From Candidatus Altiarchaeales archaeon (lineage in GTDB: Archaea > Altiarchaeota > Altiarchaeia > IMC4 > QMZM01): a stretch of 64,000 nt of DNA. A program made the position numbers and the translations under genes. A model generated the notes under the pieces. It made no database searches. It had not been told where the DNA came from and saw nothing but the letters and a program-made list of their open reading frames with translations. Positions 32,677-59,110 of the stretch are shown piece by piece; within the stretch, counting starts at the first letter, position 1, and every line of letters begins with the position of its first letter. Where the stretch lies: assembly GCA_023252215.1 (NCBI GenBank), contig JAHEXG010000002.1, positions 16,315 to 80,314 on the forward strand, given 5' to 3'.

Positions 32677-33528
32677 TCACTGTTTTAATTCGACGTTCTT
32701 GTTGTCGCGGGCTACCACGTTGTCATTGTATAGTACTTCCGCAGAGATAACGTAAGTTCCTTCCGCGACTCCTGCGCATTTGTTGCAGGGAGGGCTTGGA
32801 TAATTGAAGGATACGTCGTTCGACCCTGCGTTTAGGACGACTGCCTGCGTCTGGTTAAGCCGGTAGCGGCCTGCGTATATGCCGTAGACGTTCACGTTTA
32901 CGTCCAGTCTTTTCTGGCTGCTTATCTTCACGGTTATTTCCATCTGTTCCCCGGAGTGATACAGCGGCTTATTCAATGTGATCGCAGCCTTCACTTCCCC
33001 GTAGCGGGGGGTCTTTATCTTTGCAACCCCTGAATCGTTCTCCTGCGTGCAGGCTCCATCAAAGCATACATAGCCAGAGGGGCAGTCGATAGTCTTGTTC
33101 TTGAGGAGGAGGTTGCAGTCGATGACTTCACAGGTGTACTCCAGGACCGCGGTTCCATTTACGCATGCCTCGTTCTTCTCGCCCCAGTTGTAGTGCGCGG
33201 GATCCGATACATCCGTCAGGTAGAGGTTCAATCTGCCGGATACTGTGCCTTTTTTGTAGGGGTCTAGTCCGTCGGAGTCAAGGCACTGTTGCATTGTGGG
33301 GATAGTGCATTGACGGGAGGTAGTTGTCGTTTGCGTGACCAGGACCTGCTGAGTAGTTGTCGTGATCGAGGCAGGAACGCTTGTAGAAACCCCTATTGTC
33401 GAGGTTTGAATGGTCGATTCAGCGACCGTTACAGTAGTTACCGGGGACTGCTCCTGCTGCTGTACGCAACCAGGCAATAAAGTCGCGGCTAAAATAAGAA
33501 CTAAAAAAAATGTTTTTCCCGCATCCAT
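32677..33528 (-). CDS. Secreted/lipoprotein-like protein with Thr-rich linker and Cys-rich domain
   Basis: Signal peptide with LLPGC, TTTTQQVLVTQTTTT linker, multiple Cys pairs. Confidence 0.6.
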   Translation of the reverse strand: MDAGKTFFLVLILAATLLPGCVQQQEQSPVTTVTVAESTIQTSTIGVSTSVPASITTTTQQVLVTQTTTTSRQCTIPTMQQCLDSDGLDPYKKGTVSGRLNLYLTDVSDPAHYNWGEKNEACVNGTAVLEYTCEVIDCNLLLKNKTIDCPSGYVCFDGACTQENDSGVAKIKTPRYGEVKAAITLNKPLYHSGEQMEITVKISSQKRLDVNVNVYGIYAGRYRLNQTQAVVLNAGSNDVSFNYPSPPCNKCAGVAEGTYVISAEVLYNDNVVARDNKNVELKQ

Positions 33529-33563: not shown

Positions 33564-36500
33564 TTAGACATTCATGGTCACAGTTCTGGTCTCCGTTGTT
33601 CCAGATCCTCCCGCAGTCTTGTTCGCTGAGAAATAATAGCTGGATTTGCCGTTCTCAAGCCCTGTCAGATTCCCGTAGAACCGCCATTCTGTGGAACTGT
33701 ATTTCTGCAGCTCCGACTGGTAGAACATGGATATTTCCTTCTGGGAGAGAGCCCTGTTGTATATCCTCACCTCATCTATCAAGCCTTTAAAGTTCCTTCC
33801 TGATATGCCTGAGCCTATTTTAACAGTGCTGCAGGGAGTAATGCTTGAGAACGCGGTTGTTGCATAGCCCGCTACGGATCCGTCCTGATAGAGCGTGAGG
33901 TTCCCGGACTTCGCAGTTATAGCTATGTGCCTCCATACTCCTGTCGGCGTCTGCGCGATTATAGGCAGGTTTATCCCTCCGCTGCTTGTGAATACTGCCA
34001 TGTTACCAATCGCATTAAGCTGCATGTGGACCATACAGCTGTCAGGGGTTCCGACTATAGACTGGAATGTTCCGGTGGTCGCATTCACGTTCACCCAGGC
34101 GATCACCGTGAGCTCGGCTGCGCCGCCCAGCGTACCGTTGACATCGACCTGATCATCCACACCATCGAAGAACATAGCTCCGTTATATTTACCGGATCTT
34201 GACCAGACGGCACCGGATATGTTGCCAACGTGTCCCTTCGAGGAGACGTCCCCAACCTTTGTCGCGCTGTCGCCTGCGGCCGATATGTTGTTGAAGTTAT
34301 AGGCCAATGCAAGAGAGCCATCAAGCACCCTATACGTAGTCCCGTTCCAGTACAGGGAGAGTCCGGATATTGCTGCAGTATTTGACACGTTTACTTGAGC
34401 AAAGCTGCGGTTTATCGTCGCACCATTAGTCTCAGTCGGTGTCTTGAAAGATAACAAGGCAAGAGTAGTTGTTGTCGTGGTCGTCGTGGTAACAAGTGTT
34501 CCGACGTTATTCTGTTCGGCGCCGAATACCGTCTGAGGTTCTGGGAAAACATATTCGGCTACGTAGAGGTCATCCCACCGATTATTGTCAACCGATGCCT
34601 CTGAGCCGCCGGTCTTACCGAGAGACACAAATCCGCTCTTGTAGGGCCATGCAAAGGTATTCCTCTTGGTTCCGTTGAAATACAGGCTCATGTTAGTCCC
34701 GTCGAAACGGAAGCCTTCCATGAACCAGCGGTCCTGCACCGGAACATACTGTCCAAAGCTTGCGGACCCATTGAATCCGGAATAATAACCAATATTGTTA
34801 TTCGGATCACCATGGTGGAAGAACGCAGCATCCAGCGGCCAGACCTGATTTGGAGCAACTCTCCAAAGACCAGTCTGCGCAGTCTCCCCGCCAGTATTAT
34901 CCTCCGCATTCCAGGACTTCACTCCCACAAGATAAGGCTTAGAAATGTTCAAGCCTATTGGAGCCTTTGAAAGATTCAGATAGACATAAGCGTAGCCGTT
35001 CATGCAAGTCTGATAGCCGCTCTCCCCACACTCAGGAGTCTCCAAATAGCCGTTGGCCTCATTGATAGACGCCTCGCTCTGAAGCTTTGTCCAAGCGGAA
35101 TTGACTACACCATCATTAAAGTCATCGAAGAAAAGGAATGTCTTGCTGCCATTGCTCTGAGATACGGCAGAAGCATTGCCGTAGAACAACCAAAGCTGAG
35201 TCCCGTTTTTAGTATTCAAAGAGTCGGCTTTAATCCAAACCTCTGCCCACGAACCGTTATTTACATTCTCTACCCAGTAAGGCAGTGCAGTCGATCCGTT
35301 GCGATTCACGAACCTTAGATCAGAGAAGTCCGGCTTCATGTCACTGTCGTATGTGACTTTAAAGAAAAGACCGAGGTTGGTTGCGTTTTTTGCCACGCTG
35401 ATGTTCACAGGAACGCGCTTGGCAAAGCCGGGGAGGACGGAAGCTGACTGAGTCGTGGTGGTTGTTGTAGTTGTAGTGGTCGTGGTAGTTCTTGTAGTGG
35501 AAGTAGTTGTTGTGGTAGTAGTTGTAGTGGTTGTCATTGTAGTGGTCGTGGTAGTCATTGTAGTGGTCGTGGTAGTCATTGTAGTGGTCGTGGTAGTCAT
35601 TGTAGTGGTCGTGGTAGTCATTGTAGTGGTCGTGGTAGTCGTCGTAGTGGTCGTACCAACGCGAACCGTCCGTACTCCATTGTCTGTCTGCGCCTTGTTC
35701 CCGGCAGAATCATTCGCCCACGCGTAATAAGTATACGTCCCAACGCCCAGATTCGACAGGTTACAATAGAACCGATACTCAGTCGAATTATACTTCTGCA
35801 CCTCAGACTGATAATGAAACCACACCTCCTGCGCAGAAAGCTTGCGACGGTATATGCGCAGTTCGTCTATGCTGCCATTCATGGTCCCTCCGTCAACCCG
35901 CGAACCGACTGTAAGAGCTGCGGCGCTCTTTATGCCGTTACTCCCCAGGTTGTCCGCGTCCACTTCGGTCGCGACGCTCACGCCATTGAAATACATCTGC
36001 GGGCTGCCATCCCCACCGTAGGCAATCGCTACATGATACCAAGTATTCAGCGGAATCGTGCTAACAGACCTCTTAGACATCCTCGAGGTGAACCAGTTAT
36101 TGATCAGCTCCAGATAAATCTTGCCGTCGGCGAAGATCTCCACGCCGTAACCCATATATGGATCGGAATTCATCTTTGCCACTATCGGAGAATGCGCCGT
36201 CGTCCTCCTGTAGACCCAGGCCTCGAAAGAGAACGAATCAGTCCGGTCAAAACTCGTGCTATCCGACGTAGGAACAGTCACAACGTCATTGTATCCGTCA
36301 AAGGATACTGCTTTGCCGTACTTTCCTCCGACGAACGCAGGACACTTGCCGCCCGCCAGGTCGCACGATCCATTGTTCTTGTACTTTGAAGCGTCCACGA
36401 AACGAATCGAGGATTCGCCGAGGGCAGTGTTGTTGTTGAAGCCCTGCGCAAGCACCAGATCCTTGTCGTATACACTGTAATTGACACCATTCCAGTTGAA

Positions 36501-39500
36501 CCACATTGAGTCCAAAACATTGCCTGAACCAGGAGACACGCTCACGTTAAAGACGGCTCCGTTCGGACTGACCTGACTGTTATTGACAGGGGTCGGAGAG
36601 CGGAAAACGACACCGATCAATGTGGTCGCCAGAGTCGTCGAGGTAGTCGTCGTGGTAGACGTTGTAGTGGTCGTACCAACGCGAACCGTCCGTACTCCAT
36701 TGTCTGTCTGCGCCTTGTTCCCGGCAGAATCATTCGCCCACGCGTAATAAGTATACGTCCCAACGCCCAGATTCGACAGGTTACAATAGAACCGATACTC
36801 AGTCGAATTATACTTCTGCACCTCAGACTGATAATGAAACCACACCTCCTGCGCAGAAAGCTTGCGTCTATAGACCCGGACCTCGTCGATCGAACCGTTT
36901 ATAGTCCCCCCGTCGACCCTCGAACCTATGGTGAAAGGAGCGGAACTCTTGATGCTGCTAGACCCCAGCGTATCGAAAACTGTGTCCACACCCACGCTTA
37001 CGCCGTTGAAATACATCTGCGGGCTGCCATCGCCGCCATACGTAACAGCGACGTGATACCACGTATTCACCGGGATTATAGCAGCAGACCTCTTGATCAA
37101 GCGGGTTCTGAACCAATTATAGATCAGCTCAAAAGACAGCCGATCAGAATTGATCTCAAAACCGTAGCCCGTATAAGGATCAGAGGACATCTTTGCAAGG
37201 ATAGGAACAGACAAAGACGACCTGCGATAGACCCATGCCTCGAAAGAGAACGAATCGGTCCGCTCAAAATTCAGGCTCTCAGAATTCGGGACAGTCACAA
37301 CATCGTTTGAGCCGTCAAAAGACAGGGCGGAGCCGAACCTTCCGGAAACGTATGATGGGCATTTCCCCCCTGCAAGGTCGCATGAACCATTATTCCCCTG
37401 CCCGGAAACATCGACAAATAGAGTTGACGACTCGCCGATGCGAGTATTTCCATTAAAGGACTGACCAAGAACAAGATCCTTGTCATAAATGCTGTAGTTG
37501 ACCCCGTTCCAGTTGAACCTCAGGGAGTCAAGGGTCCTGCCCGAACCCGTGGACAGGCTCACATTAAGGACGGCTCCGTTCGGACCCACAAGGCTGTTGT
37601 TGGAAGGAGTGGGGGAACGAAAAGAGACACTGATCAAGGTGGCTGGCAGGGTCGTCGTGGTTGTAGTTGTTGTGCATGAAGTTCGACAAATACCATCACT
37701 GCACATAATCCCGTTTGTTCCACAGGCTTGCCAAGCACCCCATTTACCGATGTCGCAGGAGCAATAACGCACTTGCATCCCAGGACAACCATTAGCCGCG
37801 ATGCAGTTTTTTGTGTCCATTCCTCTCGCATCCGGCCAGCAGTAGGAACATTCTGCGCCGATCACCGTCACAATACCATCAGATTCTGTAATCGCCGCTT
37901 CATTTCCATATTCAAAATTTATTTCAGAATCCGTCAAGTCCAAAATAACGTTCCCTGGAGAAATCGCCATAAAAGTTACAACCGACAGAGCGGTTCCTGC
38001 ACTAGCCTTAGGCTCAAGGCATGCAAAATCGATCCCAACGACACCTGGCTTATTTGCAGAGACGTTGTAGCGCGAGCTGCAAGATGAGAGATAATCGCCT
38101 GACGAAACGCCAGTAACATTCAGTACTGATGAATTGTAATATAATCTGAAACTATATCCATAGATACCATCAAGAGGCGTCGATGCGATCTGCACCGTAA
38201 AGATATCATTTACTTTGACTTGACTAGCAGATGGAACTGCGCTTATAGTCGCTGAAGGGCCCTCAAAAGACTTGAGACCCAGTTTAGTGGTCTTAGCTTG
38301 ATTCGTGGCACTTGAAACGCTTTTCCCGGTTCCGTAGCTTGTAGAAAGAGTGAGCAGATCACCGTAATTCACGTATCCATTCTCATCAAAGTCGGAACGG
38401 ATATCATAGTTCTGCTGGCCTTTATTTGAACCGTATGCCGTAGCAAGAATCAATAGATCGGAGTAATCCACCTTATTATCTCGATTAGCATCTCCTGCGA
38501 GGCCGCCGATTGGATCGCAAACATCGCCTATGTAATTGTGATTATAGTCCATCTGGCCAGGATTACGGTCAAAGGGACAATTATCGTTTTTATCGAATAC
38601 GCCATCGTTGTCGTCGTCGCAGTCATAATAATCGGCATTTCCATCGCCATCGCTATCCCTTTTGGCTGAAAGGCGGAATTCTCCAGAACCAGAATCCATA
38701 TCAACTTCTATGTAATACGTCCCCGAATTGCTGATAACGCAACTCTCAGTTTCTGAACCAATAGTCCTACTTGTACAGAAAGGCTCGCTACCACAGGCAC
38801 TCGAAACATAGAGATCATAATCTGCACTAGAAGACATGCTCAGGTAAACAACGCCGGGAGAACTAAAACTCACCTTATAAAAACCACGCCATAGGTAATT
38901 TAAATCAGGGGTGTAAGTAGCTTTAACGACGCTATCCGGAGAAATCACTGGCGCGTTTGCGCAATAATAGTCGCCGGCATTTGAGACTGCAGCAGACTCG
39001 GGACAGCCGCTATTGCATTCTGGACCGTATGTTGAAAGGCAAGTATCTCTGCAATCTTTGACTCCATCTCCATCAGAGTCGTACAGACAACTGGGAGTAC
39101 TTAGTATATCCACGACGACGACTGAATATATTTTCGTCGGAATGTCTACGGAGATATAGTCGCCATCGGATTTTGGGATTCCTACAGAATCGCATCGCCG
39201 CCAGAGATTGGTTTTGGTTGTCAAATCAGTCTCTATGTTTTTGCCATCGTAAAGGTCTCCGCTAAGCAGTTTTATCTCTATGTGGTTCGTTTGTGTGTTT
39301 GCGGGGAGTTTGAGTAAAACAGGAGCATAATAAAAACGTGTCAGAGCTTTGCCGCCGTTTTTCTCCTGTACGGCATGAATGACATACCTCTTACCAGTAG
39401 GGCGTAATGGGCTGCTATAGGTTAACACGCCAGTTATGGCCAGATCATAATTAATCCCCGGGTCGGGTATGATTCCATCAGTAGAGGGATAAATCGTGGG

Positions 39501-41516
39501 ATAATTTTTGTATGTATCTGAATTCCGTTCTAAATCAGTTACGGCCATGTTGCTCCTGCCTACAGAATCCAAATTTAGATTTGGATCAGCGAACACATCC
39601 TTGTATCCATTATACATCGTCAGGTAATTTGAAAGATTCGAGACGATAAAATCGGGATTGTTATCTGACGATATTTTTGGATAATTGAATTCATTTATAC
39701 CCCGGTTACTCCAAGTCCATCCAACTATAACGCGAGGATCTCTTTGATCTCCGGTTAGAGGGGGATTATTAAACGGATCTTTGTAATGCCCTGGGCGCAT
39801 AGGTTTAAAGGAGGTATCATACGTTTGCTCGCTCCACAAGATATGACAGCCCTTTTCAGTTTCCCCTATGTCGGAGGTAAACTGGTCTGTGCTCGAACCA
39901 TCCTCAGAAGCAGCTAACGAAGGCCATGGAACAAAATAGTCGGAGGAGAAAAGAGCTTTATCAGCTCCTACACCTTCTTTTAACTGCCCTCTCATATGGC
40001 GTATCATGTTAGCATAGGCGTCTAGAGTAAAAGTGTCATTTACATTTAGTCCAAGATTCGAATTACCTTGACTGTTAAGTTTTATCTTTAAATCAGATGC
40101 ATAATCGCTGTTATACACGCCATAAGGAGTATCACTAGGGTATTCAAGGTGAGATATTCTAGTTGCACAGGTTTCCGCAGAACCAAATTTTATTGGGAGA
40201 TTATATGTTTCACCGCCGAGCGTATTGAGTAAATCGCCGCCCATAACAAGTCTCCCAGTATCGTCTACAAAAAATATGTCAAAATCGTAATTCTTCACAA
40301 GCCAACGAAACTGTTTCACCATATGATAATGATAACTGGGGTCATCAGCCCAATTCTCACCTTCAGACAGATCATCGTCAATTTGTTCCCGAGAAAATCC
40401 AGAACCGTCCTCAGCAGTAACGCCCGTCTTGGACACACCATAAGGAGACGCAGTAACGGCATAAGATATGGGGGTCCCCTCGAGTAAAGTCAATCTTTTA
40501 ACAACACCTGAACTATTTTTTTCAACCCAGCCATCAGCCATTAGGTCTGTTTTAGGATTGGGAGAAAGTTCGCATCCAGGAACATGAACAGGGTCATACA
40601 AACCGATAGGATCCATATAGACAGTTACTTTCATCCCATACCTATGAGCAATATCAGATATCTCTCGTATTTTTTTTCTTGCATCAGTAATCGAATAAAT
40701 GCCTAAAGAATTAAAGTTTCCTCGACGGACAGAAGCAGTCATAGGTGGCGTAGAATAATAGCTATTTCCATCCTCGCTTCCTGGAAACCAGCAGCTTGTT
40801 AATTTATTATTAAAAGGACATTCACAGCTACCTTTTTGGAGTGCGGGTTTAATTGTGCAAGCTTCATCCTCGCCGTAGGAATACCACAAATACGCCAAAT
40901 CTAATACGTTTAGCCCATAGCCGGATGCATACTTGATTACTCGTTCCCATTCGCTCGTCCACATTGAATCGATCTTTCCCTGATCTCCCGCGTAAGGTTT
41001 AAGCTTTTCGAAAATTGTTTCCCAGTCGCTTACGGCAACGTAATAGGTAAGCGTCCTGTAGTCCTTCGAAACCCCGAATTCGTCCACGTAGAACCTAAAT
41101 TCTGAGGAGGTACTATTGAATTTAGCGATAACCTTGAAATTTTGACCTACGAAACTGAACCCGCTGGGGGACTTCCAGGCAGCATAGTTACCGGAATTCC
41201 AAACCATGTTAAAATATTTTGTTTCGCCGGGAGCGACAGAAATGGATTTAGAAAGCTGGCCTACCTGGCTATTACTTCCATTATAAATTAAGAGCTGTAG
41301 AGTACCAGAAGCCGTACTTGAACCACCGTTCTGGATAACGGTTGTAAGGTTAACATCACCCCCAGATTTGAAAACCCGCTCAGGATTCCCTAAAGGGTCG
41401 GTCGTCTCCACCGAAACAACCAACGCAGCTAACGCATTATCAGCTAGAGCTAATATCATCAATCCAAGTATTAAAATTTTGCATAAAGATTTAGCATTGA
41501 CCTTTTTTGTTTTCAT
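33564..41516 (-). CDS. Giant secreted surface protein (2650 aa) with signal peptide, PPC-like domain, thrombospondin-type-3-like Ca-binding repeats, dockerin-like repeats, cohesin-like module, three LamG/concanavalin-like domains, DUF2341-like domain and poly-Thr linkers
   Basis: Signal peptide MKTKKVNAKSLCKILILGLMILALA. Ca-binding repeats DSDGDGNADYYDCDDDNDGVFDKNDNCPFD. Dockerin-like DANRDNKVDYSDLLILATAYG and DENGYVNYGDLLTLSTSYG. Cohesin-like VKVNDIFTVQIASTPLDGIYGYSFRLYYNSSVLNV...VVTFMA. LamG-type units duplicated. DUF2341-like LRFVNRNGSTALPYWVE. Confidence 0.85.
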   Translation of the reverse strand: MKTKKVNAKSLCKILILGLMILALADNALAALVVSVETTDPLGNPERVFKSGGDVNLTTVIQNGGSSTASGTLQLLIYNGSNSQVGQLSKSISVAPGETKYFNMVWNSGNYAAWKSPSGFSFVGQNFKVIAKFNSTSSEFRFYVDEFGVSKDYRTLTYYVAVSDWETIFEKLKPYAGDQGKIDSMWTSEWERVIKYASGYGLNVLDLAYLWYSYGEDEACTIKPALQKGSCECPFNNKLTSCWFPGSEDGNSYYSTPPMTASVRRGNFNSLGIYSITDARKKIREISDIAHRYGMKVTVYMDPIGLYDPVHVPGCELSPNPKTDLMADGWVEKNSSGVVKRLTLLEGTPISYAVTASPYGVSKTGVTAEDGSGFSREQIDDDLSEGENWADDPSYHYHMVKQFRWLVKNYDFDIFFVDDTGRLVMGGDLLNTLGGETYNLPIKFGSAETCATRISHLEYPSDTPYGVYNSDYASDLKIKLNSQGNSNLGLNVNDTFTLDAYANMIRHMRGQLKEGVGADKALFSSDYFVPWPSLAASEDGSSTDQFTSDIGETEKGCHILWSEQTYDTSFKPMRPGHYKDPFNNPPLTGDQRDPRVIVGWTWSNRGINEFNYPKISSDNNPDFIVSNLSNYLTMYNGYKDVFADPNLNLDSVGRSNMAVTDLERNSDTYKNYPTIYPSTDGIIPDPGINYDLAITGVLTYSSPLRPTGKRYVIHAVQEKNGGKALTRFYYAPVLLKLPANTQTNHIEIKLLSGDLYDGKNIETDLTTKTNLWRRCDSVGIPKSDGDYISVDIPTKIYSVVVVDILSTPSCLYDSDGDGVKDCRDTCLSTYGPECNSGCPESAAVSNAGDYYCANAPVISPDSVVKATYTPDLNYLWRGFYKVSFSSPGVVYLSMSSSADYDLYVSSACGSEPFCTSRTIGSETESCVISNSGTYYIEVDMDSGSGEFRLSAKRDSDGDGNADYYDCDDDNDGVFDKNDNCPFDRNPGQMDYNHNYIGDVCDPIGGLAGDANRDNKVDYSDLLILATAYGSNKGQQNYDIRSDFDENGYVNYGDLLTLSTSYGTGKSVSSATNQAKTTKLGLKSFEGPSATISAVPSASQVKVNDIFTVQIASTPLDGIYGYSFRLYYNSSVLNVTGVSSGDYLSSCSSRYNVSANKPGVVGIDFACLEPKASAGTALSVVTFMAISPGNVILDLTDSEINFEYGNEAAITESDGIVTVIGAECSYCWPDARGMDTKNCIAANGCPGMQVRYCSCDIGKWGAWQACGTNGIMCSDGICRTSCTTTTTTTTLPATLISVSFRSPTPSNNSLVGPNGAVLNVSLSTGSGRTLDSLRFNWNGVNYSIYDKDLVLGQSFNGNTRIGESSTLFVDVSGQGNNGSCDLAGGKCPSYVSGRFGSALSFDGSNDVVTVPNSESLNFERTDSFSFEAWVYRRSSLSVPILAKMSSDPYTGYGFEINSDRLSFELIYNWFRTRLIKRSAAIIPVNTWYHVAVTYGGDGSPQMYFNGVSVGVDTVFDTLGSSSIKSSAPFTIGSRVDGGTINGSIDEVRVYRRKLSAQEVWFHYQSEVQKYNSTEYRFYCNLSNLGVGTYTYYAWANDSAGNKAQTDNGVRTVRVGTTTTTSTTTTTSTTLATTLIGVVFRSPTPVNNSQVSPNGAVFNVSVSPGSGNVLDSMWFNWNGVNYSVYDKDLVLAQGFNNNTALGESSIRFVDASKYKNNGSCDLAGGKCPAFVGGKYGKAVSFDGYNDVVTVPTSDSTSFDRTDSFSFEAWVYRRTTAHSPIVAKMNSDPYMGYGVEIFADGKIYLELINNWFTSRMSKRSVSTIPLNTWYHVAIAYGGDGSPQMYFNGVSVATEVDADNLGSNGIKSAAALTVGSRVDGGTMNGSIDELRIYRRKLSAQEVWFHYQSEVQKYNSTEYRFYCNLSNLGVGTYTYYAWANDSAGNKAQTDNGVRTVRVGTTTTTTTTTTTMTTTTTTMTTTTTTMTTTTTTMTTTTTTMTTTTTTTTTTTSTTRTTTTTTTTTTTTTQSASVLPGFAKRVPVNISVAKNATNLGLFFKVTYDSDMKPDFSDLRFVNRNGSTALPYWVENVNNGSWAEVWIKADSLNTKNGTQLWLFYGNASAVSQSNGSKTFLFFDDFNDGVVNSAWTKLQSEASINEANGYLETPECGESGYQTCMNGYAYVYLNLSKAPIGLNISKPYLVGVKSWNAEDNTGGETAQTGLWRVAPNQVWPLDAAFFHHGDPNNNIGYYSGFNGSASFGQYVPVQDRWFMEGFRFDGTNMSLYFNGTKRNTFAWPYKSGFVSLGKTGGSEASVDNNRWDDLYVAEYVFPEPQTVFGAEQNNVGTLVTTTTTTTTTLALLSFKTPTETNGATINRSFAQVNVSNTAAISGLSLYWNGTTYRVLDGSLALAYNFNNISAAGDSATKVGDVSSKGHVGNISGAVWSRSGKYNGAMFFDGVDDQVDVNGTLGGAAELTVIAWVNVNATTGTFQSIVGTPDSCMVHMQLNAIGNMAVFTSSGGINLPIIAQTPTGVWRHIAITAKSGNLTLYQDGSVAGYATTAFSSITPCSTVKIGSGISGRNFKGLIDEVRIYNRALSQKEISMFYQSELQKYSSTEWRFYGNLTGLENGKSSYYFSANKTAGGSGTTETRTVTMNV
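35531..35640 (-). repeat. 21-bp tandem repeat, about 5 copies, inside the giant gene, encoding (TTTTTTM)n linker
   Basis: Unit cattgtagtggtcgtggtagt repeated head-to-tail. In-frame on the reverse strand. Confidence 0.85.
35645..36876 (-). repeat. 1020-bp tandem duplication inside the giant gene; 212-bp blocks (35645-35856 and 36665-36876) are 100% identical, the remainder about 75% identical
   Basis: Direct comparison of the two segments in the sequence. Encodes duplicated LamG-containing units ending ...SAQEVWFHYQSEVQKYNSTEYRFYCNLSNLGVGTYTYYAWANDSAGNKAQTDNGVRTVRVGTTTT. Confidence 0.9.
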
Positions 41517-41737
41517 AAAACACCTCTGAGGAGAGTATTCAGATTTAGACAGAATATAATAGAAAAGACCTTTTCAACAGCTATCAATCCCTTGTCCTTC
41601 CACATAGCAAGCAGTTCCTCCCGGGACGGCACCCGGACTTTTTCATATCTTGCGCAGTATGAGTTGTTTAGAAAGTCAAGGATATAACACTTCTCAGCCG
41701 GAAAAATATTTTCTTGGTTTTTCATTTGGGGAAACAC
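41513..41737 (-). CDS. Small hypothetical protein (74 aa) translationally coupled to the giant gene
   Basis: Stop overlaps the giant gene start (ATGA). AT-rich promoter-like region upstream. Confidence 0.35.
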   Translation of the reverse strand: MFPQMKNQENIFPAEKCYILDFLNNSYCARYEKVRVPSREELLAMWKDKGLIAVEKVFSIIFCLNLNTLLRGVL

Positions 41738-41916: not shown

Positions 41917-43312
41917 GGTTGTCCCATAATTCTTTGTTTGAATTTGTGTTTGTGTATTTATACTTTCTTTCGTAAATCATTATGCAGAGGCGCATTTGTT
42001 ATGGCTTATATTGATTCTTTTAAGGGTCAGAATTGGCTTCTTCCGCCTAGTATTCGTGATATGATTCCGGGGGCCATGTCTGTTTTTTTGTTGAGGATTT
42101 TGTTGATTCTTTGGATTATTCAGGATTTGATTCTGTTTATGAGGACGCAGAGCATCCTGCTTATCATCCTCGTGTTTTGTTGAAGGTTTTGGTTTAGGGT
42201 ATGATGTGCGGTACTCGTTCTTCCCGGAAGATTGCGCGTGCTGCGCGTGAGAATTTTGTTTTCATGTATTTGGCTGAGCGATTATGTCCTGATATAAGAT
42301 GATTGAGGAGGACAATACCTTGGATGATTTGAAAGATGAATTGTTTGACGGCAGGGAAGAAGGCTTAACCGGCGTTGATAGGCGTGATTTAAAGCGTATT
42401 GTGCGGGAGTACAATGAGAGTGAAAACAAGAAGCGGATTAAGAAAAAAATAGGTAAGGCCAAGACGGAGCTTGAAGAGCATGGTTTGAAGAAGGTTTCTC
42501 TTTCGGATCCTGAGCGTCGCATGATGCAGAATAAGCATGGAGTGAGTGAGTTGTGCTATAATATTCAATTGGGTGTTTCCAGTAATCAGATTGTTTTGTC
42601 TTCTGATGTCTGCCAGGATAAACATGATGCGCATCAGTTTATTCCTCAGATGAACAAGCTGCGGGAAAACGTTGAGCTGCAAAAGAACACAAAAATCGGC
42701 GTGGAATGCGCTTACAGCGACAGGGAAAACATCCATTTTGCGGAGGATAAGGGCTTGGATTTGTATGATCCTTCGAGGGCGCAGACTCAGGAATTAGATT
42801 GCAAGGAACAGAATCTCAATCACGACCATTACGAATATGATGAAAAGCACAATGAGATCATTGTAGATGGAACAAGGTATCGATATCGTGGTCCTTATAC
42901 GAGAAATAAGAGCGGGAGGACGCTTGTCACCTTCTACAATCCGCAGATAAAGAAGAAAAAAGACCGTCCGTCCTATTTTAGGGAGCGTCTTAGAATGAGG
43001 AATAAAATGTCCACACCTGAAGATAGACGGATTTATAATCAGCGTAAGACAAGCGTGGAGCCAGTGTAAGGAAACCTGAAAACCAATCGGGGTTAGGGAA
43101 TTTTTACTGAGAAGAAGGGAAAAAGCAAAGATCGAACTAAATTTAGCGTGTATCGCGCACAATTTGCAGAAAATACATCGAATGATGGGCGAAAAAAGCG
43201 GGGTATTGACCCGAAAAGAGGGACGTTTTTTAATTCAACCCCCCAAAAAAAAAGCTTCAGTACCTCAAAAACCAAAAACGAATTATGGGACAGCCTCAGA
43301 CATTTAAACGCC
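41917..43312 (+). mobile_element. IS1182-family insertion sequence remnant with 16-bp imperfect terminal inverted repeats
   Basis: Left IR GGTTGTCCCATAATTC (41917-41932) and right IR (reverse complement) GGCTGTCCCATAATTC (43280-43295). Internal transposase fragments. Lower GC than flanks. Confidence 0.6.
42001..43312 (+). pseudogene. IS1182-family DDE transposase, inactivated by at least 5 frameshifts
   Basis: N-terminus MAYIDSFKGQNWLLPPSIRDMIP then a frame change. ...VCFFVEDFVDSLDYSGFDSVYEDAEHPAYHPRVLLKVLV and ...RSSRKIARAARENFVFMYLAERLCPDIR lie in other frames. Middle ORF 42299..43069 holds SDPERRMMQNKHG...YNIQLGV...SSDVCQDKHDAHQ. C-terminal FGNLKTNRG / REFLLRRREKAKIELNLACIAHNL is again shifted. 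Confidence 0.65.
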
Positions 43313-44099: not shown

Positions 44100-45347
44100 A
44101 TGGCTTATCCAAGAGCAAGAACACCGATAGCTTTATCGCTTATACTGTGCGTTCTGCTATTTTTCTGCGGATGCGCAGGCAACAAAGGGACTGCCGTCAC
44201 AACCACCACCCAGTTCATTACCGCGACAACGCTGCCGGTTCAGAATACCCCCGCAGCCTCGTTCGGAGAATACGCCACATTCTACACCCGCATGGTTTAC
44301 GCAGGGAACCTGGGAGGAAAGCCCGCATATATCGTATCAAATGGCAATGTATCGAATGGCAATAAAAAACTCATATTATACGACGGAAAAGAGATAGGAG
44401 CGTCCTATGATCAGGCTCTTATGCCCGCGCTCATCGCCGGAAAATTGTTCTATGCGGGCGTCAAGAATAATAAATACAGCGCAGTATATGACGGACAGGA
44501 AATTGGAAAAGATTTCTTCTCCATCTGGTCTCCCGGCGAATACCTGGGAAAGCCCATCTACGTCGCCGAGAAGATAGGAAAAAGCGTCCTTATTTTTGAC
44601 GGGAACGAAATAAGCAACGCAAGCTACGACTACGTCTGGTCCTATGCAATAATAAACGGCAAGATCGCTTATCTTGCATCAAAGGCAGGGGAGACGTATA
44701 TCGCCAAAAAAATCAACCCCCAGACTTCGGAGTCCAGGAGAGACATCCCGCCAGAGGGGGTGAAATCGGTCATAGTCTATGACGGAAAGGAGTATGGCAG
44801 GGAATATGACACCGTAGGCTTCCCGATGGGTATCAAAGGATCGCTTGCCTTTATCGCTCTCAAAGGCGCTAAAAAATTCACGGTTCTGGGCGGCATGGAG
44901 GGCACGAAATACGACGACATACACGAACCCCTATTATACGATGGGAAGACCGCGTACATAGCCGAGAAAGACGGGAAAAGCTTCCTTGTATACGACGGCG
45001 CGGAGTATAAAGCATACGACCGCATTGACCCAACCTCGTTGAAGAACATCGATGGAAAAATGTCTTACCGGGCCGCTGATCCAACCACCAAAAAAGGAAA
45101 ATACTTCATAGTATATGACGGCGCAGAGATTGGGAAAGACTACGACAACGTCCTCTCATTTGCCGCGTTGTCAGGAAAGCAGGCTTATGTTGCGGATAAT
45201 AAGACAACACGCTCAGTTGTCTACGCCGGCGGGAGCAGCGGGAAAGCATACAGCGCGATTGACCCGGACTCGCTTGCATTCTACGACGGGAAGCTCATGT
45301 TCACGGCCCAGAAAAACGGCGTATGGTACGTCGTATCGGAGGAATAA
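44100..45347 (+). CDS. Lipoprotein with about 9 tandem 36-40-aa repeats (YDGxEIGxxYD periodicity)
   Basis: Signal/lipobox LLFFCGCAG. Repeated K..Y[IV]AEK.GKS.L[IV]YDG.E.G..YD units. Confidence 0.7.
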   Translation: MAYPRARTPIALSLILCVLLFFCGCAGNKGTAVTTTTQFITATTLPVQNTPAASFGEYATFYTRMVYAGNLGGKPAYIVSNGNVSNGNKKLILYDGKEIGASYDQALMPALIAGKLFYAGVKNNKYSAVYDGQEIGKDFFSIWSPGEYLGKPIYVAEKIGKSVLIFDGNEISNASYDYVWSYAIINGKIAYLASKAGETYIAKKINPQTSESRRDIPPEGVKSVIVYDGKEYGREYDTVGFPMGIKGSLAFIALKGAKKFTVLGGMEGTKYDDIHEPLLYDGKTAYIAEKDGKSFLVYDGAEYKAYDRIDPTSLKNIDGKMSYRAADPTTKKGKYFIVYDGAEIGKDYDNVLSFAALSGKQAYVADNKTTRSVVYAGGSSGKAYSAIDPDSLAFYDGKLMFTAQKNGVWYVVSEE

Positions 45348-45348
45348 T

Positions 45349-45783
45349 TTGAAAGAGGAACCGGTTGCAAGGATAGCGATATCGCTCCCGCCAAAGCTCC
45401 TGGAAAAATTCGACGAGATGAGCGAAAGGATGGGCTACGCGAACCGCTCGGAAGCGATAAGGGACGCTGCGAGAAACTATATACTCAAAAACGAGCTACG
45501 AAGCGTAAAAGGAAAGCGAGTAGGAGTTATCTCCATAGTCTACGACCACGACGTGCGCGGAGTAAACGACGTATTGATCGACCTGCAGCACAGGTACCAT
45601 GACGTAATACAGTCAAGCACGCACCTGCACCTGGACGAACACAACTGCATGGAACTTATCATGGTCAGGGGCGAAGCAAAGAGGATAAACGAAATAAAGG
45701 ATCGGCTGACGACCGTTTCAGGCGTGACCCACAGCGACCTGTTGATAACTGGGATCGCTGCAAGCCACGAGCACGCGCACTAA
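45349..45783 (+). CDS. nikR: Nickel-responsive regulator NikR (ribbon-helix-helix plus C-terminal metal-binding domain)
   Basis: RHH ARIAISLPPKLLEKFDEM...RSEAIRDA. C-terminal H/C ligands HLHLDEHNCMEL...HEHAH. TTG start 6 nt after GGAGG, 1 nt after the lipoprotein stop. Confidence 0.7.
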   Translation: MKEEPVARIAISLPPKLLEKFDEMSERMGYANRSEAIRDAARNYILKNELRSVKGKRVGVISIVYDHDVRGVNDVLIDLQHRYHDVIQSSTHLHLDEHNCMELIMVRGEAKRINEIKDRLTTVSGVTHSDLLITGIAASHEHAH

Positions 45784-47514: not shown

Positions 47515-48519
47515 CTAACACACCCTTGGCACGGGATCCCCCACAGGGGATTCAAGCAATCGTTCGCCGCCTACCGAAGTTTCCAGGATCACGCGGCCCC
47601 GGCCCTTCTTTGCCTCGCCTATTAAGGCGGCGTCTCTCCCGTATTTCGTCTTCTTCAGCGCTGCAAGGACCTTTTTCGCATCCTCCGGGGCAACGCCGAT
47701 AACAGCTTTGCCTTCGTTGGCGACAGACAAAGGATCCAGCCCAAGCATCTCCGATGCTGCGCGCACGCCGTCACGCACAGGTATGGAATCCTCATCCAAA
47801 AAAACATCCAACTTCGCTTTAGACGCCATCTCATTAATGCAACTAGCAAGGCCGCCCCGGGTCGGATCCTTCAATGCGTGCAAGTCGTATTTCAAGACCT
47901 TCTCGATCATCGGCCAAAGAGGCGCACAATCCGATACAAGCGACGATTCAAACTCTATTCCCTCACGATGAGACATTACCGCAATGCCATGGTCCCCGAC
48001 CGGCCCGCTTACTATCACCTTGTCTCCGGGACGCAGGCCGGCATCAGAGACCACCTTCTTTGCAACGCCCAGGCCAGCGGTGTTGACGAGCAGGCCAATA
48101 TCGCCGTCCACGACCTTTGTATCCCCGGTAACGATCGGAACACCTATTTCTCTTGAGACAGCATCCATGGACTCAACGATCCTGTGCAGATCAGCTATCG
48201 GAAAACCCGCGCCCACGATGAACGCAGACGAGATCGCAACAGGCCGGCCGCCCATCATGGACAGGTCGTTAATAGTCCCGCACATGGAAAGTTTCCCTAT
48301 GTCTCCGCCGGGAAAGAAGACAGGTTTTACAATGTATGAATCGGTAGTGAACACAAGGTGCTCGCCCTTGAAAGGAATCGTCGCGGCATCGTCCAGTTCT
48401 GCGAGGCCTATCCCCCCGGCAACGTTCTTTTTAGAGATCTTCTTGAGCAGGACTGAAAGCAGGCCATGCATCGCCTCCCCCCCGCCCCCGTGAACCAGCT
48501 TGATTTTCTCGTCTTTCAT
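47515..48519 (-). CDS. hypE: Hydrogenase maturation protein HypE
   Basis: N-terminal HGGGG, AIR-synthase-like fold, C-terminal PRVC. Confidence 0.85.
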   Translation of the reverse strand: MKDEKIKLVHGGGGEAMHGLLSVLLKKISKKNVAGGIGLAELDDAATIPFKGEHLVFTTDSYIVKPVFFPGGDIGKLSMCGTINDLSMMGGRPVAISSAFIVGAGFPIADLHRIVESMDAVSREIGVPIVTGDTKVVDGDIGLLVNTAGLGVAKKVVSDAGLRPGDKVIVSGPVGDHGIAVMSHREGIEFESSLVSDCAPLWPMIEKVLKYDLHALKDPTRGGLASCINEMASKAKLDVFLDEDSIPVRDGVRAASEMLGLDPLSVANEGKAVIGVAPEDAKKVLAALKKTKYGRDAALIGEAKKGRGRVILETSVGGERLLESPVGDPVPRVC

Positions 48520-49169
48520 TTCCTCTTTTCTTTTTCCTTCTTTATCCAGTCCGCGAACTCGTCTATGCCCATGTCTTTGCGGATGCTGGTCATGAATACC
48601 CTTAATTTAGAATTGATATGCAGCGCATCCCTTCTCATCTTCTCCGCATCCGCGCCCACTGCATCCGCGATGTCTATCTTGTTGATTACCGCGGCATCCG
48701 AGGACACAAATATCATCGGGTGCTTCTCCACGGTATCGTCGCCTTCGGAAACGGAAACAATGGTCACATTAAGCTGCGTACCAAGAACGAAATCCACGGG
48801 ACATATCAGATTACCCACGTTCTCGACGAAAAGGATGTCAATGTCTTTCAGATCAAAATGATCCGCAGCATGCTCCACAAGATGCGCGTCCAAATGGCAC
48901 TCCCTGCCGGTGTTCACGCCGAGGACCGGGATCCCCAATTTCTTCAACCGGTTCGCATCGAGGTCGCTTATTATGTCTCCGGCGATGGCCGCGATCCTGT
49001 ATCCTATGAGCTTTTTATGGAGGACCTCGATCATCGCAGTCTTGCCCGAGCCGATAGCGCCCATGAAATTTATCGCAAGCACCCCGGCTTCGTCGAATGT
49101 CTTACGATTGCGCTCCGCTATCTTATTGTTTATCTCGAAAACGTCCTTGTCCATGCCGATGACGTGCAT
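48516..49169 (-). CDS. hypB: Hydrogenase nickel incorporation GTPase HypB
   Basis: P-loop GAIGSGKT, GTPase G-domain. ATGA overlap with hypE. Confidence 0.85.
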   Translation of the reverse strand: MHVIGMDKDVFEINNKIAERNRKTFDEAGVLAINFMGAIGSGKTAMIEVLHKKLIGYRIAAIAGDIISDLDANRLKKLGIPVLGVNTGRECHLDAHLVEHAADHFDLKDIDILFVENVGNLICPVDFVLGTQLNVTIVSVSEGDDTVEKHPMIFVSSDAAVINKIDIADAVGADAEKMRRDALHINSKLRVFMTSIRKDMGIDEFADWIKKEKEKRK

Positions 49170-49270
49170 TTTTCCTTTAAATTACGAATTAAGTCCTTCC
49201 AATTAGCAGGCACCTAAACAACCTTATTTAATTTTTAGTATTCCCATTAATTATATAGAATATTACTCGC

Positions 49271-49564
49271 ATGAAAACCCTCAACGAGATTATGGTCGTA
49301 TTATCCGCTCACAGAGAAGAGCTTTCCAATCATTTTAGAGTGAAAAATGTGGGAATCTTCGGATCATACGTCCGAGGAGAGCAGAATAAGGGCAGCGACC
49401 TTGACGTTCTGGTGGAATTCGATGAACCTGTGAGCCTTCTAGGCTTAGCCAGGGTTGAGAATTTTTTGGGTGATCTTTTGGGTTTGAAGGTTGACGTAGT
49501 GCCTAAAAAAGACATCAGGCCGGAACTTCGCAAGAGGATTCTTGCAGAGACGGTGTTTGTATGA
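49271..49564 (+). CDS. mntA: MntA-type minimal nucleotidyltransferase (antitoxin of HepT/MntA pair)
   Basis: GIFGSYVRGEQNKGSDLDVLVEF (GS-x9-D-x-D). Confidence 0.75.
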   Translation: MKTLNEIMVVLSAHREELSNHFRVKNVGIFGSYVRGEQNKGSDLDVLVEFDEPVSLLGLARVENFLGDLLGLKVDVVPKKDIRPELRKRILAETVFV

Positions 49565-49833
49565 AAAGGGATGCGTCCATCTATCTAGGCGATATTTTGG
49601 AGAACCTTGACAGAGCCACAGAATTCGTCGGAGGCATGAGCTATGAAGACTTTGAATGCGACGAGAAGACTTTTTATGCTGTTGTCAGATGTATCGAAAT
49701 AATCGGCGAAGCTTCCAAAAACCGGCCTAACGACGTAAGGAAAGATTACCCGGATATACCCTGGAGAGACATTGCAGGGATGCGAGACAAGGTCATACAT
49801 TCCTATTTTGGAGTGAATCCACACAGAGTCTGA
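49561..49833 (+). CDS. hepT: HepT-type HEPN toxin (DUF86)
   Basis: R-x4-H-x-Y motif RDKVIHSY. ATGA overlap with mntA. Confidence 0.75.
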   Translation: MKRDASIYLGDILENLDRATEFVGGMSYEDFECDEKTFYAVVRCIEIIGEASKNRPNDVRKDYPDIPWRDIAGMRDKVIHSYFGVNPHRV

Positions 49834-49915
49834 CAGGTCATAAAAGAAGACCTGCCAATTCTCAGGCCGGTTATTAAGAAGGCGCTTGCAAAGATGAAAC
49901 CGGACAAATAGAAAA

Positions 49916-50278
49916 TTATTCCGCAGTTATCTCCTTGATCATGCATTCCCTTCCGCCCAAAGGCTTGGCGACTTCCCCGCATACCGGGCATTTCAGCCTC
50001 CGGGTCAGGGAATACACATCCTTCTTTTCAGGCATTATTTCGCTTACGTGCTTTTTTTGGCACTCGATCTTCAGAGGCAGTATCCTGCACTCGACCTTCG
50101 CTCCTTGCGCAGCAGTCCCCTCGATCAGTATCTCTAAAGCGAATACTAATTGGTCGACGCTTATCATCGACAATTGCCCGATCTCCAGGACGATCTTTGT
50201 AACCTTCTCTGCGCCGTGCTTCTTTGATTCTACGAGCACGCTTTCTACTATCCCTGAAGCTACGGAAAATTCGTGCAT
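49916..50278 (-). CDS. hypA: Hydrogenase nickel insertion protein HypA
   Basis: MHEFS N-terminus. C-terminal CPVCG zinc site. Confidence 0.8.
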   Translation of the reverse strand: MHEFSVASGIVESVLVESKKHGAEKVTKIVLEIGQLSMISVDQLVFALEILIEGTAAQGAKVECRILPLKIECQKKHVSEIMPEKKDVYSLTRRLKCPVCGEVAKPLGGRECMIKEITAE

Positions 50279-50279
50279 C

Positions 50280-51359
50280 TTATTTTCTGCCGTATTTGTA
50301 GGCGATGTGGCATGATCCTTCTCCCGATACCATGCACGGCCCGACCGGGTCGTCCGGCGTGCATCTTTCGGCGAACAGCGGGCAGTCGGCGGGATAGGCT
50401 ATCCCTTTTAGTATCTTTCCGCACGCGCAGCCCTTGGGCTCAGGCGCTTCTTTCACGTCTATTCGGAATTTTATGCGGGCGTCGTGTTCGCCGTATTCTT
50501 CTTTGATCGCGAGGCCCGATCCGGGTATCGCGGGAAAGCCGCGCCATTTTACGTCGCATGGCTCGAATACTTTTTCCAACACGTCCAGTGCTTTCTTGTT
50601 TCCATCCTCTTTCACGACGCGCGAGTACTCGTTCCGAACGCCGTGGTCTTTTTGTTTTATCATCTCCAAGAGGAGCAGTACTCCGTACAGCACGTCCACT
50701 GGCTCGAATCCTGCGACCACTTGGGGTACTTTGTATTTCTCGCCGACCGAACGGTATGGGCCCAGGCCGATTATCGCTGAAACGTGCCCTGGGTCGATGA
50801 ATCCGTTTATTTTTGTGTCTCCTTCCGAGAGCAGGAAATCCATCGCAGGGGGAATAGTCCTATGGCATGAGAGCACGTAGAAGTTCTCAGGAGCGGAAAG
50901 CAACTCCACCGCAGTTGAGGGGGCTGTTGTCTCAAAGCCTATCCCGACGTGTACGACCTCTTTTCCGGGAAGTTCTTTTGCCAGTTTCACGGCGTCGGTT
51001 ATGGAGTAGACTATTCGCACCTCGGCCCCTTCTGATTTCGCTTCCGCCAGAGATGATGCGCTTCCCGGAACCTTCAACATGTCCCCGAATGAAGTAACGC
51101 ATGCGCCTTCTTTTGCCAGGGCGATAGCCTCATCTATCTCCTTTGCAGTTATGACGCAGACAGGGCAGCCCGGCCCGGATATTATTTCCATATTGTCAGG
51201 GAGAAGGGAGCGGATGCCTGCTTTTGCGATAGCGTCCTCGTGCGTGCCGCAGACATGCATCAGGCGCACAGGGCCCATACCGGATGCAGTGCCGCAAATC
51301 TTTGCGACTATCTTTTCCGCCAGCCTGCGGTCCCGGAATCCTGCGAGATCCTTATCCAT
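50280..51359 (-). CDS. hypD: Hydrogenase maturation protein HypD
   Basis: CGTHE, GPGCPVCV and C-terminal CPxxC motifs. Confidence 0.85.
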   Translation of the reverse strand: MDKDLAGFRDRRLAEKIVAKICGTASGMGPVRLMHVCGTHEDAIAKAGIRSLLPDNMEIISGPGCPVCVITAKEIDEAIALAKEGACVTSFGDMLKVPGSASSLAEAKSEGAEVRIVYSITDAVKLAKELPGKEVVHVGIGFETTAPSTAVELLSAPENFYVLSCHRTIPPAMDFLLSEGDTKINGFIDPGHVSAIIGLGPYRSVGEKYKVPQVVAGFEPVDVLYGVLLLLEMIKQKDHGVRNEYSRVVKEDGNKKALDVLEKVFEPCDVKWRGFPAIPGSGLAIKEEYGEHDARIKFRIDVKEAPEPKGCACGKILKGIAYPADCPLFAERCTPDDPVGPCMVSGEGSCHIAYKYGRK

Positions 51360-51564
51360 CGGCTATCTCCTCCAGTATCTTCAAGGTCTCCTTGGCATCC
51401 TTTTCGTCGAGTACCTCTATTGCATATCCTGCATGGACTATGACGTATTCTCCGGGCTTAACGCTTACAAGGTCTACTTTGACGGTCCTGCGAATCCCTC
51501 CAAAGTCTACGGAAGCTTCTTTTCCCCGTATTTCAAGGACTATTCCAGGTATGGCAAGGCACAT
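51352..51564 (-). CDS. hypC: Hydrogenase maturation protein HypC
   Basis: MCLAIP N-terminus, 70 aa. Confidence 0.85.
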   Translation of the reverse strand: MCLAIPGIVLEIRGKEASVDFGGIRRTVKVDLVSVKPGEYVIVHAGYAIEVLDEKDAKETLKILEEIADG

Positions 51565-51613
51565 CTTAAGTTCTCCAATGATTTATCACTATAATTCATA
51601 TAACATTGGAATC

Positions 51614-56204: not shown

Positions 56205-57190
56205 CAGGAAAAGAAAAGCTAAAGATCGCCATATGCCGGGGATGCACATGCTCAGGCTGCGACATAGCGATACTCGACATACACGAGCGCCTGCTTAAAG
56301 TGATCGAGAAGGCGGACATAGTATACGCTCCGACCATCATGGATGCGAAGAATGCGGACGTTGAGAAAATGAAAGACCGGGAAATAGACGTCTGCTTCTA
56401 TCACGGCGCGGTCCGCGATTCCGACAACGAGGAGCTTGCACGTTTGCTGCGCAAAAAGTCCAAGATAATGATAGCCTTCGGCGCATGCGCCTGCTTCGGC
56501 GGAATATTCGGCCTTGCGAACACCACCAACAGAAAGGAGATATTCGAAGAAGTCTATAAGAACACAGCCTCCACCGACAATCCTGAGGGCATAATGCCCC
56601 AAACGGAATACGCGGACAAGAAAGGACACACAATGACCCTGCCGGAGATCTACGACAGCGTCTATCCACTGAATGAAAAAGTAGCCGTCGACTACTACAT
56701 CCCGCTGTGCCCGCCGATACCGGACCAGATAATGACGGGACTTGCCGCCATCACCTCAGGGAACCTCCCCCCAAAAGGAACGATACTCGCATCAGAAAAA
56801 ACGCTATGCAGCGAATGCGAAAGAACAAGGTCCCAGGTCAGGAAGATAGGCAAGATACACCGCCCCCACGAAATAGAAATCGACCAAGAGAAGTGCATGC
56901 TGGACCAGGGACTATTATGCATGGGCCCCGCGACGAGAGCCGGCTGCGGGACTATCTGCGTGAAGGCGAACGTGCCATGCCGCGGCTGCAACGGCCCCAC
57001 GAGCCAGGAATACGACCAGGGAGCAAACATGCTCAGCCTCGTTGCCACGATATACGGAATACCCGAAGAATCGCTCACAGAAGAAGACGTAAAAAAGGCG
57101 ATGAAAGAAATAAAAGACCCGCTGGGAACTTTTTACAGATACACGTTGCCTACGTCGATACTGAAAAGAAAAAGGATGGACGGAAAATGA
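56201..57190 (+). CDS. mvhG: [NiFe] hydrogenase small subunit (MvhG-like)
   Basis: N-terminal CRGCTCSGCD, further FeS Cys clusters. ATGA overlap with hdrA. Track ORF from 55721 is over-extended. Confidence 0.8.
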   Translation: MTGKEKLKIAICRGCTCSGCDIAILDIHERLLKVIEKADIVYAPTIMDAKNADVEKMKDREIDVCFYHGAVRDSDNEELARLLRKKSKIMIAFGACACFGGIFGLANTTNRKEIFEEVYKNTASTDNPEGIMPQTEYADKKGHTMTLPEIYDSVYPLNEKVAVDYYIPLCPPIPDQIMTGLAAITSGNLPPKGTILASEKTLCSECERTRSQVRKIGKIHRPHEIEIDQEKCMLDQGLLCMGPATRAGCGTICVKANVPCRGCNGPTSQEYDQGANMLSLVATIYGIPEESLTEEDVKKAMKEIKDPLGTFYRYTLPTSILKRKRMDGK

Positions 57191-58662: not shown

Positions 58663-59110
58663 CAAGACACTCGTGCTAGGCGTAGGAAATCCCATACTGG
58701 GAGACGACGGAGTAGGCATACATGCGGTAAGGGAGCTTAGAAAAGACGCAGGCTGCGCAGATTTTGAGGAGGCGCCCGTCTCAAGCCTGGAACTGGTGGA
58801 AATGTTCCTAGGATACGAGAAAGTCATAATCGTCGACGCAGTAAAAACAAGGGAAGGCGTCCCGGGAAAAATATACGAACTATGCGGGGAGGATATGCCT
58901 ACCCTGCACGGCCTGTCCCCGCACGACGTGGACTTTCATACCGCACTGGAATACGGGAAAAAATTCATGGGACAGATGCCGAAGATAACGATATACGGCA
59001 TCGAAGCCGCAAACGTAACGGACTTTGGCGAAACGCTCAGCCCAAAGGTCGAGGAATCTCTTCGTTTAGTCATAGAAAAAATCAAAAAAGAAATCAAAGA
59101 TGGATCTTAG
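58655..59110 (+). CDS. Hydrogenase maturation endopeptidase (HycI/FrhD-like)
   Basis: VLGVGNPILGDDGVGIHAV N-terminus typical of hydrogenase C-terminal proteases. Overlaps mvhA by 8 nt. Confidence 0.75.
   Translation: MNNKTLVLGVGNPILGDDGVGIHAVRELRKDAGCADFEEAPVSSLELVEMFLGYEKVIIVDAVKTREGVPGKIYELCGEDMPTLHGLSPHDVDFHTALEYGKKFMGQMPKITIYGIEAANVTDFGETLSPKVEESLRLVIEKIKKEIKDGS

Follow-up and report, generated by a model that had tools for sequence, protein, structure and literature searches.

The 64-kb stretch of DNA analysed here (the window) carries a giant gene, an open reading frame (ORF) that starts with ATG, occupies 33564..41516 of the minus strand and encodes 2650 amino acids (aa). We lean towards the view that its product is a secreted, anchor-less, multi-modular carbohydrate-active enzyme, which cohesin–dockerin contacts would keep at the cell surface or in the matrix. 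An earlier interpretation made from the letters alone (the sequence-only reading) had described a secreted protein of this size with a candidate role in cell-surface assembly, adhesion or an S-layer. The extracellular location is borne out by an N-terminal signal peptide, but the purely adhesive role is not, since a head resembling glycoside hydrolase (GH) family 66 had been overlooked. With this GH66-like head and its invariant acidic residues in view, a tethered carbohydrate-active enzyme becomes more likely than a protein with adhesive or S-layer functions alone.

The head (hereafter the N-module) makes up ∼30% of the giant protein. A Pfam scan of aa 143–810 gave no match even at E-values up to 10, GH families included, and a search of the PDB sequences returned nothing, either with the single sequence or with a 26-sequence profile. 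By a word-indexed homologue search we found four relatives, and an exhaustive HMMER search started from their alignment recovered 43 proteins at E ≤ 1e-3 among 1.84 billion representatives, 26 of them below 1e-30. No GH family was found in any of the 14 family members that were scanned against Pfam. Among the 185,579 species representatives of GTDB, we observed a single relative, 29% identical to the N-module, in the Thermoplasmatales archaeon HyVt-387 (Table 1). Judged by these searches, the N-module family is genuine yet very small and rare, and it lies outside the classified families.

Next, we consider the predicted structure. With 5 sequences, AlphaFold2 reached a predicted local distance difference test score (pLDDT) of 39.5, and a usable model needed the deeper HMMER-derived alignment; with the 26-sequence alignment (A2), the pLDDT was 83.6 and the predicted template-modelling score was 0.88. 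In this model, a (β/α)8-type core that contains insertions is preceded by one β-sandwich and followed by another; this is the domain layout of GH66, for which an N/A/C domain arrangement is described (bioRxiv 10.64898/2026.08.30.748175). When the model was compared with the PDB by Foldseek, each of the top 16 matches was either a GH66 dextranase or a cycloisomaltooligosaccharide glucanotransferase of that family (E 1e-18 to 5e-12), and a GH36 galactosaminidase and GH13 enzymes came next. The TIM-barrel exopolysaccharide hydrolases (Cwp19, the C-terminal domain of PgaB, GH114-like/GH191 and GH168) had scores below those of GH66, GH31 and GH13 and are without the N- and C-terminal β-sandwich arrangement seen in the N-module. 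As no sequence profile matches it, we regard the N-module as GH66-like in fold but not as a member of GH66.

In the families GH66, GH27, GH31 and GH36, the nucleophile is situated after β4 and the acid/base after β6. The residues that are invariant in the 26 homologues, which are 21–75% identical to the module in the window, are Y300, P309, R341, Y410, D418, D419, G421, R422, R509, Y527, D539, D544 and P703. Among them, D418 and D419 come right after the strand IFFV, assigned as β4, and D544 follows the strand GSST, assigned as β6; both places lie in confident regions of the model. Going by this model, the catalytic pair would consist of D418 or D419 as the nucleophile and D544 as the acid/base. 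In AgCI4Tase, a GH66 enzyme, the nucleophile is D289 and the acid/base is E356 (bioRxiv 10.64898/2026.08.30.748175).

The N-module is met in several protein contexts. P0003, P0004 and P0010 are ∼790–810 aa in total, with the module as their main or only recognisable domain, and other family members join it to PKD, CARDB, Big_5 or β-propeller domains. The C-termini of P0012 and P0014 show a hydrophobic stretch and then basic residues, which we read as a putative C-terminal membrane anchor. That relatives combine this head with different extracellular modules, two of them with apparent anchors, supports the idea that the enzyme is tethered, and it fits an extracellular enzyme whose tether would vary between lineages.

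In the giant protein itself, the signal peptide is the sole hydrophobic 19-mer window, and neither the hydrophobicity scan nor the Pfam domain scan revealed a membrane anchor, an SLH domain or a sortase signal. That the protein has a signal peptide and no other hydrophobic segment supports its predicted extracellular location.

We then looked at the segments that may serve as the tether. A cohesin had been claimed, and Pfam (PF00963; threshold, 24.1 bits) recognised it over positions 5–139 of the 139 positions of the model, scoring 30.3 bits when the whole protein was scanned and 36.1 bits when the segment was scanned by itself; its sequence matches in the PDB were weak (4uyp_A, E 0.24; 4ums_A, E 0.42). 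The two dockerin-type Ca-binding repeats that had also been proposed scored 18.9 bits with Dockerin_1 (PF00404) on the whole protein (aa 1007–1057) and passed the threshold of 22.9 bits, with 24.9, on the isolated segment only (the isolated Pfam scans were of aa 801–1000 and aa 1001–1300). This dockerin matches cellulosomal dockerins in the PDB (2y3n_B, E 2.6e-5; 3kcp and 2b59, E ∼3e-3). In each of its Ca-binding loops, positions 1, 3, 5, 9 and 12 are D/N and a helix follows (DANRDNKVDYSD-LLILATAYG and DFDENGYVNYGD-LLTLSTSYG), and the two halves are near-symmetric (YSDLLILATAYG versus YGDLLTLSTSYG). The protein has one dockerin and one cohesin, spaced by ∼30 residues; having a single cohesin, it is not a scaffoldin. 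Thrombospondin type-3-like repeats were likewise recovered, by TSP_3 at 17.1 bits on the whole protein (threshold, 25) and 29.7 bits on the isolated segment. A PPC-like domain, also named in the sequence-only reading, was not supported at the threshold of its Pfam family (Table 1).

The C-terminal half agreed with what had been expected from the letters, namely three LamG domains, a DUF2341-like domain and poly-Thr linkers. Laminin_G_3 (PF13385) matched three stretches with 215.4 bits, and DUF2341 (PF10102) matched with 72.9 bits, both above threshold. Four poly-Thr linkers (aa 1282–1289, 1615–1628, 1955–2022 and 2343–2351) lie between the C-terminal cassettes. LamG cassettes 1 and 2 are 75% identical, their last ∼85 aa being the same, and cassettes 1 and 3 are 31% identical. 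The NCBIfam families TafC, Omp28-related and MtsC were considered for the giant protein and rejected, because their scores are far under the thresholds and reflect the LamG and TSP3 parts only. We also noticed a break in composition inside the gene at ∼38,000: GC is 41–46% in the 5′ part (N-module through dockerin) and rises to 50–53% in the 3′ part (cohesin and everything after it), which may reflect a mosaic origin or an amino-acid bias.

Table 1. Features of the giant protein, the two adjoining ORFs and the GTDB relative of the N-module (window coordinates unless a contig is given)
Feature	Residues	Coordinates (strand)	Remarks
Signal peptide	aa 1–31	41424..41516 (-)	Basic n-region, hydrophobic core, ALA/A in the translation
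GH66-like three-domain module (N-module)	aa 32–805	39102..41423 (-)	N-terminal β-sandwich aa 32–145, (β/α)8 barrel ∼aa 151–670, C-terminal β-sandwich aa 692–804
PPC-like β-sandwich	aa 879–938	38703..38882 (-)	Weak: PF04151 14.3 bits, below threshold 25.9
Thrombospondin type-3 Ca-binding repeats	aa 945–1002	38511..38684 (-)	TSP_3 on isolated segment; DxDxDG motifs
Dockerin	aa 1007–1062	38331..38498 (-)	Two near-symmetric F-hand repeats; PF00404
Cohesin	aa 1094–1218	37863..38237 (-)	PF00963; kept in P0009
Cys-rich segment	aa 1223–1281	37674..37850 (-)	10 Cys; missing from orthologue P0009
LamG cassette 1	aa 1290–1614	36675..37649 (-)	Laminin_G_3 and flanking β-rich segments
LamG cassette 2	aa 1629–1954	35655..36632 (-)	Laminin_G_3
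Long poly-Thr linker	aa 1955–2022	35451..35654 (-)	21-nt tandem repeat
DUF2341 unit	aa 2025–2342	34491..35444 (-)	Pfam match aa 2063–2143
LamG cassette 3	aa 2352–2650	33567..34463 (-)	Laminin_G_3; no membrane anchor after it
Upstream small ORF		41513..41725 (-)	70 aa from ATG (74 aa from GTG at 41737); stop overlaps the ATG of the giant gene (ATGA)
Downstream protein		32677..33528 (-)	283 aa, Thr-rich, secreted or lipoprotein-like; 35 nt past the giant gene
Thermoplasmatales relative		L006 4161–5846 (DRIF01000197.1)	Reading frame runs off the 8.5-kb contig

An orthologue, P0009, is a single ORF of 2083 aa on a 15.8-kb contig (ENA ERZ1426824). It is 64% identical over aa 1–1236, with the N-module, PPC-like segment, TSP3 repeats, dockerin and cohesin in the same positions; the dockerin–cohesin pair is conserved as a unit (∼63–70% identity), and the DUF2341 unit is 75% identical. 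The module order common to both proteins is N-module, PPC-like, TSP3, dockerin, cohesin and DUF2341. The tail of P0009 has no LamG cassettes; in their stead come a second DUF2341 unit and, at the C-terminus, two additional dockerins that are flanked by Cys and belong to another sequence type. As P0009 matches the giant protein in the head and differs in the C-terminal half, the head and the dockerin–cohesin unit are stable and the tail is shuffled. The two dockerin loops and their helices are kept in P0009 and also in P0006 (L011 532–1830, ENA ERZ27256921, from a different sample), a secreted protein of 432 aa that has a poly-Thr linker and ends in a dockerin. This dockerin is of the same type as that of the giant protein and 52% identical to it, which makes P0006 a candidate for the type of ligand bound by the cohesin family of the giant protein. 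The P0006 dockerin and the extra dockerins of P0009 together favour a network of partners. Wider searches with this region were less productive: a scan of JGI metagenomes with the dockerin–cohesin alignment gave dockerin-only matches and no further orthologue, a word-indexed search with the dockerin–cohesin segment returned TSP3 or dockerin fragments only and missed P0009, and a dockerin-profile search returned only fragments of 48–104 aa.

In the scheme that we prefer, the N-module would act as a glycosidase or transglycosylase, and its substrate would be a glycan outside the cell, probably an α-linked one. Four lectin-type modules, namely the LamG cassettes and the DUF2341 unit on their poly-Thr stalks, would bind or target glycans in the manner of carbohydrate-binding modules. 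The Ca-dependent dockerin and the cohesin would tether the enzyme non-covalently, via partner proteins or via other copies of itself.

Several observations weigh against such a tethered enzyme. The N-module is ∼12% identical to the GH66 dextranases and cycloisomaltooligosaccharide glucanotransferases (PDB 5axg, 3vmn, 3wnk and 8iu8), and the GH family profiles do not match it; it differs from these enzymes also by long insertions after β2, β3 and β4 and by the tiny size of its family. The catalytic residues were placed by the order of the secondary-structure elements in the model, and the putative acid/base is an Asp, giving Asp plus Asp where GH66 has Asp plus Glu. On the side of the tether, a six-frame scan with hidden Markov models and motifs found no further cohesin or dockerin in the window or in ∼2 kb of sequence next to it. 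The genes nearby (hyp, NikR, NifU and MetRS) lend no functional support. Finally, the count of LamG cassettes comes from a single assembly, since the short-read assemblies break there.

Binding-type modules form much of the protein (three LamG, DUF2341, TSP3, cohesin and dockerin), and this, like the absence of a matching GH sequence family for the N-module, would suit a non-catalytic adhesin or surface-layer component, in which the barrel is a glycan-binding pseudo-enzyme and the protein mediates cell–cell or cell–substrate attachment. We consider this unlikely. The acidic residues after the assigned β4 and β6 are invariant in 26 very divergent homologues, and pseudo-enzymes usually lose such residues; in addition, P0003, P0004 and P0010 have little else that is recognisable apart from the module. 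A different question is to what the dockerin binds. It could bind the cohesin of another copy head-to-tail, or act in cis, so that the protein would self-assemble into homo-oligomeric chains or sheets, as a cellulosome-like scaffold or adhesion layer; self-assembly does not conflict with the enzyme and would come on top of it, not in its place. The short spacing of the two domains, the conservation of the pair in P0009, the near-symmetry of YSDLLILATAYG and YGDLLTLSTSYG, as in dockerins with a dual binding mode, and the lack of any other anchor speak for it. On the other side, binding specificity is not readable from sequence, the two dockerins of a different type in P0009 and the matching dockerin on a separate protein, P0006, point to hetero-partnering, and in characterised cellulosomes the dockerin of a scaffoldin does not, as a rule, bind the cohesins of that scaffoldin. 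We thus keep self-assembly as a tentative possibility, and a doubtful one.

An ORF of this length could also be chimeric, or have the wrong number of repeats, through mis-assembly of the LamG and poly-Thr repeats. The population was located in public assemblies through the housekeeping neighbours of the gene. Two of its short-read assemblies (ERZ27279942 and SRR14366796), which are 99.97–100% identical to the window, do break inside the gene, at a stretch of ∼255 nt common to LamG cassettes 1 and 2 (window 35,597–36,916; loci L008 and L009), and an exact-sequence look-up of the 2650-aa product in public protein records gave no match. The absence of the full product from the public collections is explained by this break, which divides the gene between two contigs. 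From the 5′ side, contig L009 extends as far as aa 1597, another contig starts at that break, and L007/L008 cover the last 665–718 aa. Because both flanks are reproduced in independent assemblies, the gene is not a chimera, and P0009 holds the N-module, dockerin, cohesin and DUF2341 in one ORF; an artefact is therefore very improbable. The uncertainty in the gene structure concerns only the LamG cassette count at the break (one or two). A bolder extension of the tethered-enzyme reading would have the N-module founding a new GH family that, in Altiarchaeia, is built into a self-polymerising cohesin–dockerin chain, an archaeal non-cellulolytic 'glycosome'. We find this quite unlikely; if it were true, enzyme-bearing extracellular fibres would remodel the matrix of the organism itself or the glycans of a partner.

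Archaeal cohesin–dockerin proteins have been known since 1999. Verified pairs exist in Archaeoglobus fulgidus (cited in PMC9012536, which cites Peer et al. 2009), and the anaerobic methanotrophic archaea ANME-1, ANME-2a and ANME-2c have many cohesin/dockerin proteins, some of which combine one dockerin and as many as five cohesins in the same chain (Chadwick et al. 2022, PMC9012536). The statement in the sequence-only reading that archaeal examples are rare is thus out of date; their function is described as unknown (PMC9012536). Like the A. fulgidus and ANME proteins, the giant protein is a secreted archaeal polypeptide with a Pfam-recognisable cohesin and dockerin, has no cellulose context and is presumed to be an extracellular organiser. 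It differs from the scaffoldin-like proteins of ANME in having a single cohesin, and from both groups in the fusion of the pair to a large GH-like module, three LamG cassettes and DUF2341, as well as in its host, which is probably an Altiarchaeia archaeon. A literature search for cohesin or dockerin proteins in Altiarchaeota brought up no report of them; the one publication returned has a single mention of each term. The cohesin–dockerin theme in archaea is already documented.

Components of bacterial cellulosomes and amylosomes share with the giant protein a catalytic module, modules of the carbohydrate-binding type and a Ca-dependent dockerin, which aligns with the solved cellulosomal dockerins; the cohesin in the same chain is as in adaptor scaffoldins. 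Unlike in those components, the dockerin lies inside the chain instead of at its C-terminus, the cohesin is a single one, an anchor protein of the SLH or sortase kind was not identified, and the catalytic module is outside the known GH sequence families. In its working logic, the giant protein may be likened to a dockerin-borne enzyme combined with an adaptor. It joins a cohesin–dockerin pair to a glycosidase-like module with a confidently predicted fold and conserved residues of the catalytic type, and on the question of what such proteins assemble it offers a concrete construct for expression and a defined cohesin–dockerin pair for testing. The N-module family, with its 43 representatives in 1.84 billion, is a candidate for a new GH family, and the cohesin–dockerin architecture is extended to a probable Altiarchaeia lineage.

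Altiarchaeia are known for unusual surface structures. The window contains several archaeal markers, namely an intron-containing tRNA, a geranylgeranyl reductase, an HdrA–MvhD fusion with a NiFe hydrogenase and HdrBC, and hyp genes. Its GC content is ∼49%, in agreement with the 48.5% of the Alti-2 genome IMC4_SM1 (PMC4975002). The topoisomerase encoded in the window falls into one cluster, at 90% identity or more, with a DNA topoisomerase I attributed to a Candidatus Altiarchaeia archaeon. The host is probably an Altiarchaeia archaeon. The tRNA, at 8534–8671 on the minus strand, is 138 nt long according to Rfam, which implies an intron of ∼65 nt and fits an archaeal host; ARAGORN made no call there. 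At 54066–60415 (+) and 47515–53866, a cluster of the HdrA–MvhD fusion, the small and large subunits of the NiFe hydrogenase and HdrC/B-like proteins adjoins hypF, hypC, hypD, hypA, hypB and hypE.

Close to the giant gene, the small coupled ORF upstream and the secreted Thr-rich protein and NifU-like gene downstream were all found as the sequence-only reading had listed them. The 70-aa upstream ORF is annotated as a gene in two independent assemblies and has no Pfam match; at the P0009 locus, an ORF of 66 aa stands in its place with the same 4-nt overlap. The downstream protein has an N-terminus resembling a signal or lipobox and a Thr-rich linker, belongs to no Pfam family and is followed by the NifU gene. 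Its counterpart at the P0009 locus has 277 aa; after it comes an ORF of 73 aa, in the position that NifU occupies in the window. On the upstream side, the P0009 locus has genes of 97, 111 and 411 aa and then NikR, SDR, HypE and HypB, the same set of neighbours as in the window. A functional link of the giant gene to its hyp, NikR, NifU and MetRS neighbours was considered and rejected, as nothing connects them in function.

Two further ORFs lie on this upstream side. One of them (44100–45347, plus strand) encodes a lipoprotein-like product of 415 aa with a signal ending in CGC, a Thr-rich linker and repeated YDGKEIG-type motifs; it has no Pfam family, is conserved next to the giant gene and next to its orthologue, and is followed by NikR at 45349–45783. 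The other (42299–43069, plus strand) encodes a highly charged product of 256 aa and is situated between the upstream region of the giant gene and the cluster of the 97-, 111- and 415-aa genes and NikR. It is missing from the P0009 locus, its region has a low GC content of 0.39–0.44 and a strongly positive GC skew of +0.31, and it may be an insertion or the remnant of a transposase.

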